DNA from: Akkermansia sp.
Lineage (GTDB): Bacteria; Verrucomicrobiota; Verrucomicrobiia; Verrucomicrobiales; Akkermansiaceae
Assembly (NCBI GenBank): GCA_045651585.1
Contig: JAZRSQ010000093.1
Coordinates: 19,624 to 83,623 of the forward strand
Reading direction: 5' to 3'
Length of the DNA stretch: 64,000 nt
Position 1 is the first letter of the stretch. Every line of letters begins with the position of its first letter. The notes below the pieces were generated by a model. That model was not told the origin of the DNA, did not search any database, and saw nothing but the letters and a program-made list of their open reading frames with translations. Below are positions 1,997-8,415 of the stretch, one piece after another. A program made the position numbers and the translations under genes.

Positions 1997-3112
1997 ATGC
2001 GCAGGCCTTTACAGCTGACCTTGTGCCTGACGCACGATTGCACGCTGCGTTGCCGCTATTGCTACGCAGGGCGTAAGTACGCGCATGCCATGAGCCGCGA
2101 AACGGCGGAGCGTGGCATGGACATCGGGCTGGCAGAGGCCGTGCGCACCGAGCGCGGCGTGGACTTGTCATTTTTCGGGGGTGAGCCCTTGCTGGAGTGG
2201 GATTTGCTGCAGCATTGCTGCAACTACCTCAAACAACAGGCAGCCGAGCAAGGAGTGCGCGTGCGTTTCGGGATTACCACCAATGGCACATTGCTGACCC
2301 GCAAGCGATTGGAATGGCTGGCCGAGCAGGATTTCTTGGTCGGGCTTTCCGTCGATGGCTCCCCCGCCATGCACGACCTGAACCGCTGCCATGCCGATGG
2401 GCGAGGCAGCCATGCCGAGGTAGCCGCCGCGCTGGAGCTCATGCAGCTGCACCCTACCCTGCGCAGCAAAGTCATCTGCGTGGTAAACCCGGCAAATCAC
2501 CACTTATTAGTGGAGGGTGTGCAGTGGTTACACGCGCACTATCGCGGTAATATAGGGCTCAATTTCGACTTCTGGAGCGAGTGGAGCGACGCTCAATTTG
2601 AATCGCTGAGTACCCAGCTGGAGCTGTTGCAGCACCTTATGCTCAATTCCTACCGCTGTGGGCAGCCCATACGCGTGGCAAACTTCGAGGATAAAATGCG
2701 CAGCGCTCTGTTGCCCCCCGACAGGCCCTGCGCTCAGTGCAACATCGGCGAGCAGGAGATTGCGGTATCGGTCGATGGCAATCTCTTCCCCTGCTCCCGC
2801 TTGGTTGGCGAAGGAGATAATCCCGCCCTCACCTTCGGCGATGTTCATAGCGGCATTAACCGAGCAAAACAACAGCTCATCATTGCACAGCGTGGGAATG
2901 CCACCCCGGAATGCAAAGTCTGCGCCCTGCGCCACCGTTGCATGAACTCCTGCGGCTGCACCAACTACGCCGGCTCCGGTCACTTCAACCGCGTGACTCC
3001 CTTCCTCTGCAATCTGGAGCAGACTATCATCCGCCTGACAGATGCTCTGGTATCGCAACTCTGCAGCGAGCAAAACGAAACACTGCAGCGCCGCCTCGCA
3101 AGCCATTTGTGA
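1997..3112 (+). CDS. Radical SAM enzyme with SPASM domain
   Basis: CTLRCRYC (CxxxCxxC), FFGGEP, TNGTL, SVDG; SPASM cysteines C..C..G...DGNLFPC and CxxCxxxxxCxxxCxC. Confidence 0.92.
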   Translation: MRRPLQLTLCLTHDCTLRCRYCYAGRKYAHAMSRETAERGMDIGLAEAVRTERGVDLSFFGGEPLLEWDLLQHCCNYLKQQAAEQGVRVRFGITTNGTLLTRKRLEWLAEQDFLVGLSVDGSPAMHDLNRCHADGRGSHAEVAAALELMQLHPTLRSKVICVVNPANHHLLVEGVQWLHAHYRGNIGLNFDFWSEWSDAQFESLSTQLELLQHLMLNSYRCGQPIRVANFEDKMRSALLPPDRPCAQCNIGEQEIAVSVDGNLFPCSRLVGEGDNPALTFGDVHSGINRAKQQLIIAQRGNATPECKVCALRHRCMNSCGCTNYAGSGHFNRVTPFLCNLEQTIIRLTDALVSQLCSEQNETLQRRLASHL

Positions 3113-3229
3113 AAAAAGCCCCTGCTCTCGAGAATAGTCCAGTTTCAGCAATCCATTCTCTTCCCGATAATTTGCAAATATCGCGAGGGGCAACACAGAG
3201 TATAATAAGAGTTTTCGCACATGCTAAAC

Positions 3230-6202
3230 TCATCCCTCAATTATTGTATCTTTATCAGAGTTCTCATTTAACCACCTTTGGACTTTCCGAACGCATTCAT
3301 CAATATTATCCAACACCTCGTATGCCCAGAAACGCATCACAGTCCAGCCATTCGCTGTTAAGATGTTGTTGCGAATTTGGTCAGATGAAATGTCATTTTC
3401 TGTCCACAGAGTATGGTATTTTTTACCATCAATTTCAATGTTTAACTTCCTATGTTCATCAATAACAATGGCAAAGTCTAATGAGTATCTATATTCAATA
3501 TATTGAGGATGCACATTCGTAATGCCTGCGTCGGTCAAAGCAGCATAGAAACGCCTTTCTATAGAAGAAGCGAGTTCTCCATTAGAAATAACCGAATAAA
3601 TTTGGAGCGGGGTATGTTTTATATCTTGGACATAGTTAGCCAAATCGCAAAGAAGAGGGACGTCCTTGCAATTTGAACAATAATGCAAGTCTCCAACTAT
3701 GATTAACTTACTTCGAGCCCTAGTAATGGCGACATTAAAAATATTTTCTTGTTTGCGCAGAAAAGAGCGAGTTTGAGCCAACGCCCCATGTGAAAGAACG
3801 GGGGACATAATGATGATGTCCTTTTCATCGCCCTGAAACTTGTGAGTAGTATCAATCAGTAAACCTTTTTCCGATATGTTAACCCAGATATTTTTGTTCT
3901 TATTTACCAAGCCCTTAATATAATTTGCCTGTTTTCTAAATGGGGTAACAACACCTATTGAGCCTTGAAAACAATCCTTGCAAATGATAGTCTCTAATTC
4001 ACGAACTACTCTTCGGGCTTCAGCCTTGTTGTATGCGCTTCCATCGAAAGGCCTCTCAGTCAATCCAACCACATGTTTCCATACGATACCAGACTCCCGC
4101 GGTATATAGTGTTCCAAAAAGGCAGGATTTGTAGCGCAACGCAAATTATCAGCGTAAAAGTGATGATTTGAAAATTGTATAATTTCCGGATGCGAACGAT
4201 AATGATTAAGTAACAAATGCGGTTCAGTTACAGCAGGAAGAGCTAAGTCGTACAATGAATTGCTAATATATGAAAAACGAAGTTGCTCATCTCCGACTCC
4301 GTACTGAGATCGCAGCTCATCATTTTCTGCAACGGATAAATTTGAAACATGCCGAAGTTGCTTCGGGTCTCCCACAATTACAGCATTCCTCGCTCTATAC
4401 AGGAGAGGAATGGCCGAGGCAATATCACATTGGCTCGATTCATCAAATACGACGTAGTCAAAGAAATTAGCCTGCAATGGAATGCGATTCCTTGCGGATA
4501 ATGATGTTACTGCCCAACAAGGTATGTAATTTCTGATTTTAACTAAATCTGTAGCTTTAAAAAGATTGATTGCCCCAGATGCCTGTGCCTGCCTGATTTG
4601 TGCCAGCAAATTCGATATACTTACTCGATCTGAGAGACGGGAGATAGTCGTTTTTCTCCTTATAAAGAGCTTCCAATACGTGTTGGAGTGTTCTATTATA
4701 CTATGGTTGAGTTTCTTTTCTTCTTCATACAGCTCTTCCAGAGAGCCGAGCGTTCTCAGTTGACGTAATGCCGAATAATATTGCTTAATTTTTGCTATTA
4801 AAGCGACTCTTTTTTCAATTTTTTCAGCTACACTCCTATAATAAATAGTATGTTCTCTTTTGTATCTTGATTTTTTTGGGTCAATTTTAACCCCCACTAT
4901 TTTACAGAAATTCCACAATCTAACAAGGTGTTGGTTGTACCTTTCGGAGATTCTCCTTTTGCAGAAAAACCAAATAAACTTATTCCATAACTTAGACCAA
5001 TTAACTTTACTTAACTCACTGATATAGTCTTTGAGGAATTCGAGTTCTAACCTTAAATCGGTTGTATTATATTTTCTTATCTTACGAAATAGAGTCGGAT
5101 TTGTTTGTCGAAAATGGTATACTTCCCGTTCTAAAGAATCTACCGTATTTCGTTGTTCAATTAATGCTCTAATCTTTTTTAGAACGTCCTCATGTAGAGA
5201 ATGGGCGTTTTCAAATTGTTGTTTCGCGACTTCAAGTTCCTCTGAAAGATTTTTCTTTCTCTTATTAGCCAGTATACTGGCTATAAATTCCGTCAATCTT
5301 TCAGCATAGTGATTGTTTCCAAGGCGAAGCAATGAAGGTGTTTTTGTTAAGGCATTGATTCTCTTCTCCACTATATCAATTGCTTTGTTATTCTTGCTTA
5401 CCACAAGAACACTTTTGCCATTCAGAACAGCATTAATCACAAAGTTGGTTATTACCTGCGATTTTCCCGTTCCCGGAGGCCCTGTAATAATGCTTATCTT
5501 GCGAGAGAAACAACTTCTAATAGCGCCAAGTTGCTCTTGGTTTAACGGAGAAACCTGATAAATGAAGTCGCAGCTTGTACCAATATCATTAGCAACCTTA
5601 TTGATAAAAATAAGTTTTTCCAAAGATGTTCCAGATGATTCTAAATTTGCGCCTGTTGATAACTGCTCTAACTCAATAGCTAATCCTTTTGTATAATTGA
5701 AAAATCCAGCATCACTAAATAATATCCCCTTATCAAAAACGCTCCCCGATTTAGCGGTGTTTTCCTGCAGATTACTCCATGGAACAGATTTCAATACGCC
5801 ATTAAGTAATTGTGCGAAACCATTGAATGACAAACCGAATTCTTCCCCATCTGTAACATTACTATAATCCGCATCCTCAAGTAATAGCCCCTCTTTATCC
5901 AATTGTTTTACATTTAGCGAAGCCGAATGTAAGTTTATAGTCAGTTTTCGCTCCGAGACAAAAGCAGAAAAAACAAATATAGGTATATACTCACCTTTGT
6001 CGTTTATGTAACATGGATACCCTACGTTCAAGTCAACACCATCTTGCAAAACAAAGTGTTCAATTTCATCGGTAAGAGGAATTTCTTCAACAAGACCTCC
6101 GTTTCCATCCATAGGGAAAGCGTGTCCGCTTTTTAGAGCAACACTCAGCTCGTCCTTTTTTAAGCATTCACGGTAATAATTACACAGATCCGAAAACTTC
6201 AT
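3230..6202 (-). CDS. SF1 (DNA2/NAM7-like) helicase fused to a C-terminal DUF559/Vsr-like endonuclease
   Basis: GPPGTGKS, VFDESSQ, VGDPKQL, HYRS, FQGDEKD, NVAITRAR; C-terminal E..RFY...DF...IEIDG..YH...GWTVMRFW; AT-rich. Confidence 0.88.
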   Translation of the reverse strand: MKFSDLCNYYRECLKKDELSVALKSGHAFPMDGNGGLVEEIPLTDEIEHFVLQDGVDLNVGYPCYINDKGEYIPIFVFSAFVSERKLTINLHSASLNVKQLDKEGLLLEDADYSNVTDGEEFGLSFNGFAQLLNGVLKSVPWSNLQENTAKSGSVFDKGILFSDAGFFNYTKGLAIELEQLSTGANLESSGTSLEKLIFINKVANDIGTSCDFIYQVSPLNQEQLGAIRSCFSRKISIITGPPGTGKSQVITNFVINAVLNGKSVLVVSKNNKAIDIVEKRINALTKTPSLLRLGNNHYAERLTEFIASILANKRKKNLSEELEVAKQQFENAHSLHEDVLKKIRALIEQRNTVDSLEREVYHFRQTNPTLFRKIRKYNTTDLRLELEFLKDYISELSKVNWSKLWNKFIWFFCKRRISERYNQHLVRLWNFCKIVGVKIDPKKSRYKREHTIYYRSVAEKIEKRVALIAKIKQYYSALRQLRTLGSLEELYEEEKKLNHSIIEHSNTYWKLFIRRKTTISRLSDRVSISNLLAQIRQAQASGAINLFKATDLVKIRNYIPCWAVTSLSARNRIPLQANFFDYVVFDESSQCDIASAIPLLYRARNAVIVGDPKQLRHVSNLSVAENDELRSQYGVGDEQLRFSYISNSLYDLALPAVTEPHLLLNHYRSHPEIIQFSNHHFYADNLRCATNPAFLEHYIPRESGIVWKHVVGLTERPFDGSAYNKAEARRVVRELETIICKDCFQGSIGVVTPFRKQANYIKGLVNKNKNIWVNISEKGLLIDTTHKFQGDEKDIIIMSPVLSHGALAQTRSFLRKQENIFNVAITRARSKLIIVGDLHYCSNCKDVPLLCDLANYVQDIKHTPLQIYSVISNGELASSIERRFYAALTDAGITNVHPQYIEYRYSLDFAIVIDEHRKLNIEIDGKKYHTLWTENDISSDQIRNNILTANGWTVMRFWAYEVLDNIDECVRKVQRWLNENSDKDTIIEG

Positions 6203-6226
6203 AAAAGGAATATCATTATAAAGTAT

Positions 6227-7210
6227 TCACTTCCACAGCGGATGGCTTTCCCAGTGTTCTGGCAAGCCCATTTTGTGCAGAGGAATACCATTCTGCCGGG
6301 AATCTTGCAGGAATTGCTGCATGCGCACGTACCACTGCGAGGAGGGTGCTACCTGTTTGAGCAAATAACGGCAAATGAACAGCAGTGGCGCAAGCTGGGC
6401 CTGAGAATGGAGCAAGGAGGGAGCTCCGGCCAACTTAGCGGTAGGCTTAACCCATTTTCCGGCTTTGTCGGAATACACAAAATCCCACGGCAAGGCGGGC
6501 GTATTATTCATACGGGGAACTGCCATGAATATTTTGTTCCAGATGCGAGCATGGTGAGCACAGTCATTGCGCAAAACACGCAATGAAGATAGCCATGTAT
6601 ACAAAGAACCTGTGTCGATTCCCCATTCACGAGCAATGGCCTTTCTGATACTCTTGTCGGAGTGGGAATAGAAGTAGACTACAGTACCAAACTCCATCTC
6701 TCCCACTGCCATCCAAAGAGGCAGATAGTCATGTTTGTCTCCATAGGTATTGAAGAAATGGTCGACAGAATCCTTACCTGTTAACAAAACACTCCCCTGT
6801 TTATTTTTAGGAATACGAACTCTATCTAAGCACTGCATATACCCTTTCCATTTGGGGAAATACGTCTGGCTTGCATAAGCAAAAGGAGATTGATTTGCAG
6901 TGTGATGATACGCAATACGACTACGAAGCGCAACCTCTATGCGCTCAATGGCGTCTATCATCAGAAGTCGCAGTTTGCGGTCAAAGAGGTAATGATTCCA
7001 TACTTTATCCAACGTTACACCGGGAGTATAATTGTCCTCAATTTTTCCGTTTTGATTTCTAACCCGAAAAGGATGTAAGTATGCACTGAAACGATAGTAG
7101 CCCACCTGCGTCAACCGTCTGGCTAAAATCGTAGCATCCGCAACAAGTCCGCGTTTTTGAAGAAGCGCTACTTGTTTAGAAATTGAGAGATGCGGCTTTC
7201 GGTATTCCAT
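6227..7210 (-). CDS. Abi family (AbiD/AbiF-like) HEPN protein
   Basis: Likely start MEYRKP at 7210; GYYRFSAY, Y.FDRKLR...DAIERIEVALR, HEPN RNDCAH (RxxxxH) followed by HARIWN. Confidence 0.88.
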   Translation of the reverse strand: MEYRKPHLSISKQVALLQKRGLVADATILARRLTQVGYYRFSAYLHPFRVRNQNGKIEDNYTPGVTLDKVWNHYLFDRKLRLLMIDAIERIEVALRSRIAYHHTANQSPFAYASQTYFPKWKGYMQCLDRVRIPKNKQGSVLLTGKDSVDHFFNTYGDKHDYLPLWMAVGEMEFGTVVYFYSHSDKSIRKAIAREWGIDTGSLYTWLSSLRVLRNDCAHHARIWNKIFMAVPRMNNTPALPWDFVYSDKAGKWVKPTAKLAGAPSLLHSQAQLAPLLFICRYLLKQVAPSSQWYVRMQQFLQDSRQNGIPLHKMGLPEHWESHPLWK

Positions 7211-7221
7211 ATAAAATAAAA

Positions 7222-7282
7222 AACCCTCCCCATGTGCGCAGTTGAAGGAATCAACGGATTCCAACCCTAAGCGGGGGAGGTT
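7222..7282 (-). ncRNA. Putative structured RNA (abiF-type leader/antitoxin) upstream of the Abi gene
   Basis: Nested hairpin CCTCCCC...GTTG-GAATC-CGTT-GATTC..CAAC...GGGGAGG between a perfect promoter and the ATG. Confidence 0.6.
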
Positions 7283-7292
7283 ATCTAAGCTC

Positions 7293-7320
7293 ATTATACA
7301 TGAAGTACATCATTTGTCAA
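7293..7320 (-). promoter_or_regulatory. Sigma70 promoter of the RNA-abi-helicase unit
   Basis: TTGACA (7320-7315) - N16 - TATAAT (7298-7293), perfect hexamers. Confidence 0.8.
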
Positions 7321-7540
7321 TAGGAGGGAACGAATAAAAATAAAAAAACATCGACCTTAAACACACTTGTGATTTCGTAACAATGACACAAACCATGAGT
7401 TAATATTAAAAGTTGAAGAGAGTGCTTAGAGCCGGCATTGAGACCTACTGCTACAATCTGACTGAGGCATGGTATGTAAACCCAGCATTCGGGATGTATA
7501 GCAAACAGCTACCTCCAGCTCACAAGCCTTATTTTTGGCA

Positions 7541-7568
7541 TTGACTTCGGTCAGGGCATGTTTATAAT
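7541..7568 (+). promoter_or_regulatory. Sigma70-like promoter upstream of the PIN-like gene
   Basis: TTGACT - N16 - TATAAT. Confidence 0.6.
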
Positions 7569-7819
7569 ACCCGCAAGCAACACAAGGAGCATTCTGTTCG
7601 GGGCTCCGAAGTTTGAGATATTCACTCTTCTTCCGTGTTGGCAGGTGTTTGGCTGAAATGATGAGGATATTCGCCCTTCTTTCTCGCACCTGCGCTTACA
7701 GGAAGAAGGGATACCGCACAAAACGCCCCTATGCTCGCCCACTATACAGGCGCATGCGTATTTTCTGCGATACTTTCCTTCTTGTTGTCCACCAATGGAA
7801 ACAAATAAAGGAAATTAAC

Positions 7820-8344
7820 ATGATAAACATTCAAGCCGCCGAAAAGTCGGCCCACCGCGAGTTCACCAAACTCATTCAATCACACGCTGCAGCTATCTAT
7901 ACAGACACCTGTTTTCACCTGCCGTTCATCTTGCGCCACTGTCGCGAATTAAGGCAGAATGGGCAGCGGGTTAAAGTCACAAAATCCGTACAGCTGGAGC
8001 TGAACGATAAAAACAAAAAGCCCTGGGCCAAAAAGAAGCTGAACACACTCCGTAAATCCGGCAAATGTTTTGAACTTTTACCCGGCAATAAACAGGAGAG
8101 AAAAAAAATCTATGTCCAGAAAAAAGCGGCCTATGCGGACGAGGCTTTTGAAGACCTGTTCAGCCAAGAAACACAGAAGAAAAATGTGCTTCTAACAGCT
8201 GATTACGCGCTTGCAAAAAAGATTGCCGTCATGGTCAGCACCGTTGCAGTCTTCTTTCAATATTCAACAGCCGACTCGGGCACACACGTCGTACTGTGGT
8301 CAGATTACCAAAAACTTACTGAGCAAAAAGCACTTTCTGTTTGA
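7820..8344 (+). CDS. PIN-like domain protein (putative ribonuclease)
   Basis: AAGGAAA then ATG at 7820; acidic PIN-like motifs IYTDTC, V..EL, YADEAF, VLLTADYALA. Confidence 0.55.
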   Translation: MINIQAAEKSAHREFTKLIQSHAAAIYTDTCFHLPFILRHCRELRQNGQRVKVTKSVQLELNDKNKKPWAKKKLNTLRKSGKCFELLPGNKQERKKIYVQKKAAYADEAFEDLFSQETQKKNVLLTADYALAKKIAVMVSTVAVFFQYSTADSGTHVVLWSDYQKLTEQKALSV

Positions 8345-8415
8345 CACATCGAGGTACACTGTGCTATCCTGAGCTCAGACAAGCGCTGACCATCAACATA
8401 CGCTACCGACTGACT

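Follow-up and report, generated by a model that had tools for sequence, protein, structure and literature searches.

The 64,000-nucleotide (nt) stretch of Akkermansia sp. DNA analysed here (GCA_045651585.1, contig JAZRSQ010000093.1, positions 19,624 to 83,623 of the forward strand; referred to as the window, whose coordinates are used below) contains an abiF gene that is preceded by a structured leader RNA. The locus is very likely a self-contained AbiF-AbiFr cassette, that is, a type III-like toxin-antitoxin or abortive-infection system in which the leader would serve as the RNA antitoxin of a predicted HEPN RNase. Comparative evidence supports the leader as a divergent copy of the abiF/AbiFr motif, which precedes AbiF genes across bacteria. 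Its antitoxin function is suggested by homology, by the extreme conservation of the RNA, and by an asymmetry among relatives in which the RNA is kept and the toxin lost. These lines of evidence favor the functional RNA-antitoxin module that had been proposed from the letters of the DNA alone (hereafter the sequence-only reading), with its functional steps argued by analogy: a discrete transcript, termination, binding, neutralization and a trigger would all be as in characterized relatives. The locus belongs to the already published AbiF-AbiFr class, and the known picture of that system is unchanged.

Results

Architecture of the leader RNA

The motif occupies 7225..7280 of the minus strand and was delimited by a comparative model, a consensus fold, apical covariation and sequence identity. 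From 5' to 3' the leader reads AGAUAA-CCUCCCC-CGC-UUAG-G-UU-GGAAUC-CGUU-GAUUCC-UU-C-AACU-GCG-CACAU-GGGGAGG-G, followed by UUUUUUAUUUUAU and the ATG at 7210. In the outer stem, CCUCCCC (7280-7274) is paired with GGGGAGG (7231-7225); an inner 3-base-pair (bp) helix joins CGC (7273-7271) to GCG (7239-7237), and CACAU (7236-7232) forms a 5-nt bulge on the 3' side. The apical hairpin is made of GGAAUC (7262-7257), a CGUU loop and GAUUCC (7252-7247), and covariation supports the succession of a G7265-C7244 pair, a UU/UU internal loop and the GGAAUC/GAUUCC helix. The elements of the motif are thus the CCUCCC(C)/(G)GGGAGG stem, the CGC/GCG helix, UUAG, the apical hairpin, AACU and the CACAU bulge. A single-stranded tail, AGAUAA (7281..7286), precedes them, and a U-run, UUUUUUAUUUU (7213..7223), can be read directly 3' of the outer stem.

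The sequence-only reading had drawn a nested hairpin here. Its outer CCTCCCC/GGGGAGG stem and its inner GAATC/GATTC stem both stand, whereas the GUUG/CAAC extension that it gave to the inner stem does not: this pairing is lost in relatives, and covariation favors the G-C pair with the UU/UU loop in its place. Three features that define the motif, namely the CGC/GCG helix, the CACAU bulge and the U-run, were absent from that reading.

Homologous leaders

AbiF homologues were collected with their flanks from species genomes, from metagenomes by profile search, and from 401 Verrucomicrobiota genomes. A GC stem followed by a U-run lies just before the gene in 100 of the 112 loci with usable upstream sequence (28-82% protein identity), a count that gives no independent evidence for the U-run, as the hairpin finder required one. 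Nearly all show the same order of elements: promoter, AGCAaA-type tail, CCCGCC, 1-nt bulge, SGC, CUCU, apical hairpin, GCS, bulge, GGCGGG, U-run, Shine-Dalgarno (SD) sequence and ATG. The apical hairpin is very variable in length, and the 3' bulge comprises 5-7 nt (CAAAUGU, CAAAUxU, UAAUUC, CACUU and others). Canonical abiF-motif RNAs carry an AGCAaA/AGUAaA tail, to which AGAUAA corresponds in the window. Across 75 distinct copies of the canonical form, 94.8% of the cells of the nine basal pairs are paired, a share that drops to 28-45% when their 3' partners are slid by one to three columns; double changes occur at seven of the nine pairs, and none of 500 shuffles reaches the observed values. 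The upstream structured RNA of the sequence-only reading thus recurs, with the same architecture at the same position, in about 100 homologous loci, and the basal part of the hairpin, whose conservation in homologues it had left to be examined, is conserved.

A covariance model, R1, was built from the leaders of 75 distant homologues, with no sequence of the Akkermansia clade among them. Its best match in the window is the leader itself (7288-7217, minus strand; 18.2 bits, E 5.8e-4), with all 56 positions in register and the AGAUAA tail, which is invariant in the clade, aligned to model positions 3-8. R1 also matches every clade leader (15-27 bits) and the Rfam-positive site of phage phiC2. 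Moreover, several loci bridge the canonical form and that of the window. L042 has a short loop on the CCUCCC/GGGAGG stem of the window, L058 and L062 combine CGC-UUAG with long apical stems, and L097 (56% protein identity) carries the window's basal module unchanged under a wholly different apical hairpin. The bulge of the clade is CACAU or AACAU, as compared with the canonical CAAAU type. It is the register of the match, its position and this graded series of forms, and not the R1 score alone, that carry the argument for homology.

A second, weak R1 match, of 15.2 bits at 1533-1586 of the window (minus strand), was set aside as probably due to chance, no Abi gene being nearby. It reads UCAGCAUGCGCCCCA...GGGGUGUUUCUUUU and lies antisense in a 92-aa (aa, amino acids) open reading frame (ORF) of the plus strand.

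Selection on the RNA in Akkermansia

Among 11 loci of the clade, the 63-nt RNA is 95-100% identical, as opposed to 68-76% for the coding sequence and 43-50% for third codon positions; the 42-nt promoter region of the same loci is 55-76% identical. The RNA is therefore under very strong purifying selection. Variation is restricted to the apical stem, where the changes are compensatory. For example, the UU/UU internal loop is replaced by C-G/C-G in genome G496 and by U-G/C-G in loci of the L007 type, CAG-U-AUC/GAU-CUG takes the place of GGAAUC/GAUUCC in genome G413, an apical A-U pair becomes G-U in genome G051, and the whole hairpin is swapped in the L097 type. The basal module is thus fixed in sequence, as would be expected of a surface recognized by a protein, while the apical stem would need only to be a stem.

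Loss of the toxin gene with retention of the RNA

When 154 Akkermansia species genomes were scanned with the exact pattern, 38 copies of the RNA turned up in 36 of them, and a control with the reversed pattern gave none. Twenty-four copies stand before an intact abiF of 327-332 aa, two are cut off by contig ends, and in the remaining 12 abiF has been lost or broken. These 12 losses represent at least eight different lesions: whole-gene deletions that leave the last 12-17 codons (L133 and L135, with the same junction in L132), a truncation after 27 codons (L010/L150), internal deletions (L138, L143 and L159), a pair of frameshifts (L158), loss of the start codon (L157), and complete absence of the gene (L128, L149 and L156). 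Five of the 12 genomes are without any Abi_2 gene. Among clade members with upstream sequence available, no intact abiF was found without the RNA.

The same old deletion junction, GGGGAGGG joined to CGTTTTGTATTGACGATGTACAATTGACGATTGAC, is found in L132, L133 and L135, whose contexts are unrelated or diverged and whose RNAs (at 1501-1559, as oriented, in each) differ by at most one base. The junction lies directly after the stem, and a conserved 35-nt TTGAC-repeat sequence, CGTTTTGTATTGACGATGTACAATTGACGATTGAC, follows.

Subject to the bias of the search, the asymmetry between an RNA that is kept and a toxin that is lost fits an antitoxin. The orphan RNAs are the most interesting by-product of the analysis. 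The unit of promoter and RNA may conceivably lead a life of its own, with orphan RNAs acting as stand-alone antidotes, for anti-addiction or for immunity against incoming AbiF cassettes, or else serving another partner, although we regard this as rather improbable.

As a separate observation, genome G147 contains five Abi_2 paralogues, two of which are of the window's type, each with its RNA (C21 and C149).

Evidence against the assignment and the Rfam model

Several observations weigh against the leader as an abiF-type antitoxin RNA. Its folding energy by itself is not significant (z = -1.56 for the minimum free energy), and the case rests on the comparative data. Canonical CUCU is represented in the window by UUAG, as it is in L058 and L062. 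Two plain GC-rich terminators of the same genome (L124 and L125) score 21.6 and 18.6 bits with R1, and were rejected as abiF motifs; since such terminators score alike, the R1 score by itself is not decisive. The tally of orphan RNAs is biased, in that the pattern finds only intact RNAs and that mutations have a 15-fold larger target in the ORF. Finally, the Rfam abiF model RF03085 (37 positions, gathering cut-off 37 bits), run with Infernal as the sequence-only reading had advised, gave no match in the 3-kb region, in the 106-nt leader (E <= 10) or in the whole genome.

The RF03085 result says little, because the model misses 11 of 20 evident motifs even though its positive control works. The control was the RCd22 region of the Clostridioides difficile phage phiC2, which scored 37.6 bits; the consensus there is <<<<<<-<<<___loop___>>>------>>>>>>, with CCCGCC-A-AGC...GCU-CAAAUC-GGCGGG, and the window's leader can be written in the same layout as CCUCCC-C-CGC...GCG-CACAUG-GGGAGG. 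Both have a 6-bp outer GC stem, a 1-nt 5' bulge, a 3-bp inner helix and a 5-7-nt 3' bulge starting with CA, directly upstream of an Abi_2 gene. The window differs in its apical part (29 nt instead of about 11), in its stem (CCUCCC for CCCGCC), in UUAG for CUCU, and in its bulge (CACAU for CAAAUC). When 20 leaders with evident abiF motifs upstream of Abi_2 genes were scored, 11 failed the cut-off, and scores dropped with apical length: short loops scored 41-52 bits and medium ones about 37, L099, L015, L120 and L023 reached 29-31, and L058, L045, L107, L101, L108, L042 and L062 gave no match. RF03085 is thus too narrow and under-detects copies with long apical or variant stems, so that surveys based on it under-count AbiF-RNA systems. 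The window's leader is not filed under RF03085 as currently modelled.

Promoter and translation start

Promoter, leader RNA and abiF all lie on the minus strand. The sigma-70 promoter (7293..7320) consists of a -35 hexamer TTGACA (7320-7315), a 16-nt spacer and a -10 hexamer TATAAT (7298-7293). The sequence-only reading had called it perfect; it matches the consensus at 12 of 12 positions, and the hexamers are kept across about 40 related loci while the spacer diverges. Transcription is predicted to start near A7286 from the promoter spacing and from the point at which conservation sets in.

The ORF listed for the gene has 355 aa; its initial ATG (7294-7292) overlaps the -10 hexamer, whereas homologues all start at the MEY.../MQY... 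position. Because the upstream ATG falls within the -10 box and every homologue begins at MEY or MQY, the 28-aa extension is non-coding leader and the true product is the 327-aa protein (7210-6227). The ATG at 7210 and the assignment of the extension to the RNA leader, both of which had been put forward by the sequence-only reading, are borne out by this alignment of start sites.

No separate SD sequence occurs between the U-run and the ATG, and the sole SD-like GGAGG lies in the 3' arm of the stem. The ATG is 14 nt past the stem in the window, as compared with 11-14 nt in the clade, 18 nt in the L097 type and 16-70 nt elsewhere. Because the U-run directly follows the outer stem, the motif would appear to double as an intrinsic terminator or attenuator.

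The AbiF protein

The gene at 6227..7210 encodes a 327-aa AbiD/AbiF-family HEPN protein, an identity that the sequence-only reading had suggested and on which Pfam, PADLOC, the PDB and the predicted fold now agree. The protein matches Pfam Abi_2 (PF07751; E 1.8e-45, 156 bits against a curated cut-off of 25.6) and PADLOC AbiD (E 2.6e-56), and aligns over its full length with PbAbiF, the only AbiF whose structure has been solved (PDB 8VZ6_A; E 8.5e-41, 29% identity). An AlphaFold2 model with a predicted local distance difference test score of 90.9 had 8vz6_A as its only significant PDB match in Foldseek (E 4.4e-18, TM 0.77/0.84). The Rx4H motif RNDCAH, noted as intact in the sequence-only reading, comprises R214-H219 (6571-6554) and is aligned to the catalytic R210/H215 of PbAbiF; its R, N, C, A, H and H residues are invariant in 18 homologues. 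The R210/H215 double mutant of PbAbiF is described as inactive (10.1101/2025.04.15.648962, citing Zilberzwige-Tal et al. 2025). By sequence and by modelled fold the protein is a genuine AbiF, and RNase activity is predicted.

It is 27 residues longer than PbAbiF, mostly through insertions after the HEPN motif. A possible relationship between extra post-HEPN residues and apical hairpin length was discarded, as the Spearman correlation of 0.32 stems wholly from the Akkermansia clade and is -0.09 outside it.

Discussion

A model for the locus

The following course of events may be envisaged. The strong constitutive promoter would start transcription near 7286, and the first 60-70 nt would fold as a divergent abiF-motif RNA. 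The GC-rich basal stem and the U-run would stop most transcripts, giving an excess of a small RNA of about 70 nt that ends in the U-run, and rare read-through would yield the abiF mRNA. Because the ATG is 14 nt past the stem and the only SD-like GGAGG is inside it, translation of that mRNA is expected to be low, and folding of the motif or its binding by AbiF would presumably reduce it further. AbiF, presumably a dimer, would bind the basal module (tail, outer stem, 3-bp helix and CACAU bulge), and the bulge would block its active site. Phage infection might then lower the supply or the stability of the RNA, upon which free AbiF would degrade RNA and the infection would be aborted.

The leader could instead be only a cis-acting attenuator, a terminator or a hairpin that occludes the ribosome-binding site (RBS) and so holds abiF expression down, with no trans-acting, protein-binding antitoxin role. 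This would suit the placement of a GC stem and U-run directly ahead of the ATG and of the sole SD-like GGAGG within that stem; R1 scores ordinary terminators similarly, and RCd22 is reported to act transcriptionally as well (10.1101/2025.04.15.648962). A terminator, however, needs structure and not sequence, yet the tail, the bulge and the helices are 95-100% invariant while the neighboring non-coding DNA and the coding sequence diverge, and covariation is limited to the apical stem. The promoter and RNA also persist where abiF has been deleted, including the three loci with the same junction and diverged flanks, and homologous RNAs bind their AbiF (PMC12737573). An attenuator and nothing else is, in our judgment, unlikely.

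Still less probable is an RNA that acts as an activating or guide-like cofactor, comparable to Cas13e-like intermediates, so that AbiF would need it to recognize phage RNA. AbiF has been put at the root of Cas13 evolution, with its non-coding RNA as a precursor of the CRISPR RNA (PMC12737573, PMC12165695), and specificity might in principle reside in the variable apical hairpin. That variable part is nonetheless a closed hairpin with compensatory changes, no spacer-like, single-stranded variable segment is present, and the characterized close relatives use their RNA as an inhibitor. Phage-borne copies of the window's RNA variant were not found among IMG/VR viral contigs with the exact motif pattern, a scan in which complementarity of the apical part to phage was not searched. 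As for a meaningless hairpin and a gene that starts at ATG 7294 with a 28-aa N-terminal extension, the frame of 355 aa is indeed open. Against this, the codon is embedded in the -10 hexamer, upstream open frames vary in length and frame between loci, conservation is uniform over all three codon positions, and PbAbiF and all homologues align from MEY; such a start can hardly be credited. The evidence therefore favors the reading of the locus as an AbiF-AbiFr cassette with an RNA antitoxin.

Comparison with characterized systems

AbiFr binds and neutralizes PbAbiF (Zilberzwige-Tal et al., Cell 2025, as summarized in PMC12737573); according to the same summary, it binds 1:1 to each monomer of the PbAbiF dimer, and bulge nucleotides block the RNase. 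The window shares with this system, from a Prevotellaceae bacterium (PDB 8VZ6), a full-length homologue with the catalytic R/H residues aligned, and a structured non-coding RNA that is encoded immediately before the gene in the same orientation and has a single-stranded bulge beside its basal stem. The published type III-like toxin-antitoxin logic may likewise be common to both, the Akkermansia copy being known from its sequence.

RCd22 is made as a terminated transcript of about 100 nt with read-through into abiF, and neutralizes AbiFCd in cis and in trans, for which the stems of the motif are needed (10.1101/2025.04.15.648962). AbiFCd-RCd22 (C. difficile phi027, phage phiC2) resembles the window in its SigA-type promoter and in a short terminated RNA, predicted for the window, with read-through into abiF, and R1 and Rfam match one and the same phiC2 site. 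RCd22 differs in having two abiF motifs, a separate terminator and RBS, and a transcription start 168 nt from the ATG, whereas in the window a single motif would itself be the terminator and the ATG follows after 14 nt with no separate SD sequence. The two AbiF proteins are about 25% identical.

Type III systems of the ToxIN type have the same order of promoter, antitoxin RNA, terminator and toxin RNase gene, and likewise obtain an excess of RNA through attenuation. ToxI-type antitoxins, however, consist of tandem repeats that a non-HEPN toxin processes, while the window has a single hairpin motif and an HEPN RNase.

The locus would extend an experimentally characterized system to Akkermansia (Verrucomicrobiota), a genus of importance in the gut, about a quarter of whose species representatives have the cassette. 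Beyond this, what the analysis adds is modest: the narrowness of RF03085, the overlap with terminator and RBS, and the frequent orphan RNAs of Akkermansia. In this compact layout, antitoxin motif, terminator and translation start would overlap within 70 nt, and together with the orphan RNAs it offers simple handles on how an RNA antitoxin is retained after its toxin is lost.

Genomic context

The cassette lies in a 5.4-kb islet of low GC content (3000-8400; 33-46% GC as against 52-60% in the flanks), which is probably a small acquired defense islet. It holds abiF, the leader, a helicase gene and a 243-aa ORF (7613-8344, plus strand) for which neither Pfam nor PADLOC gave a match. The helicase gene (3230..6202, minus strand) starts 25 nt past the abiF stop and encodes a 990-aa SF1 helicase fused to a DUF559/MTES_1575 nuclease-like domain (Pfam AAA_11/AAA_12/MTES_1575), with PDC-S37, MkoC and MkoA as its best PADLOC matches (Mokosh/PDC-S37-like). 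Besides the window, only L014, L142, L144 and L147 have the helicase after abiF, and L002 and L130 retain 76-aa remnants of it. This helicase-nuclease was considered as an obligatory partner and rejected, as it adjoins abiF in only a minority of loci. Because the flanking genes differ between loci and the helicase is present in few of them, the conserved unit is promoter, RNA and abiF.

One further homologue, L006 (JAZTWX010000032.1), lies on a 2.3-kb contig in a Bacteroidaceae bin of a metagenome-assembled genome. Its AbiF is 82% identical to that of the window, and the gene downstream, which differs from the window's, has an HNH-like C-terminus. Either the contig was mis-binned and belongs to Akkermansia, or the gene was transferred recently.

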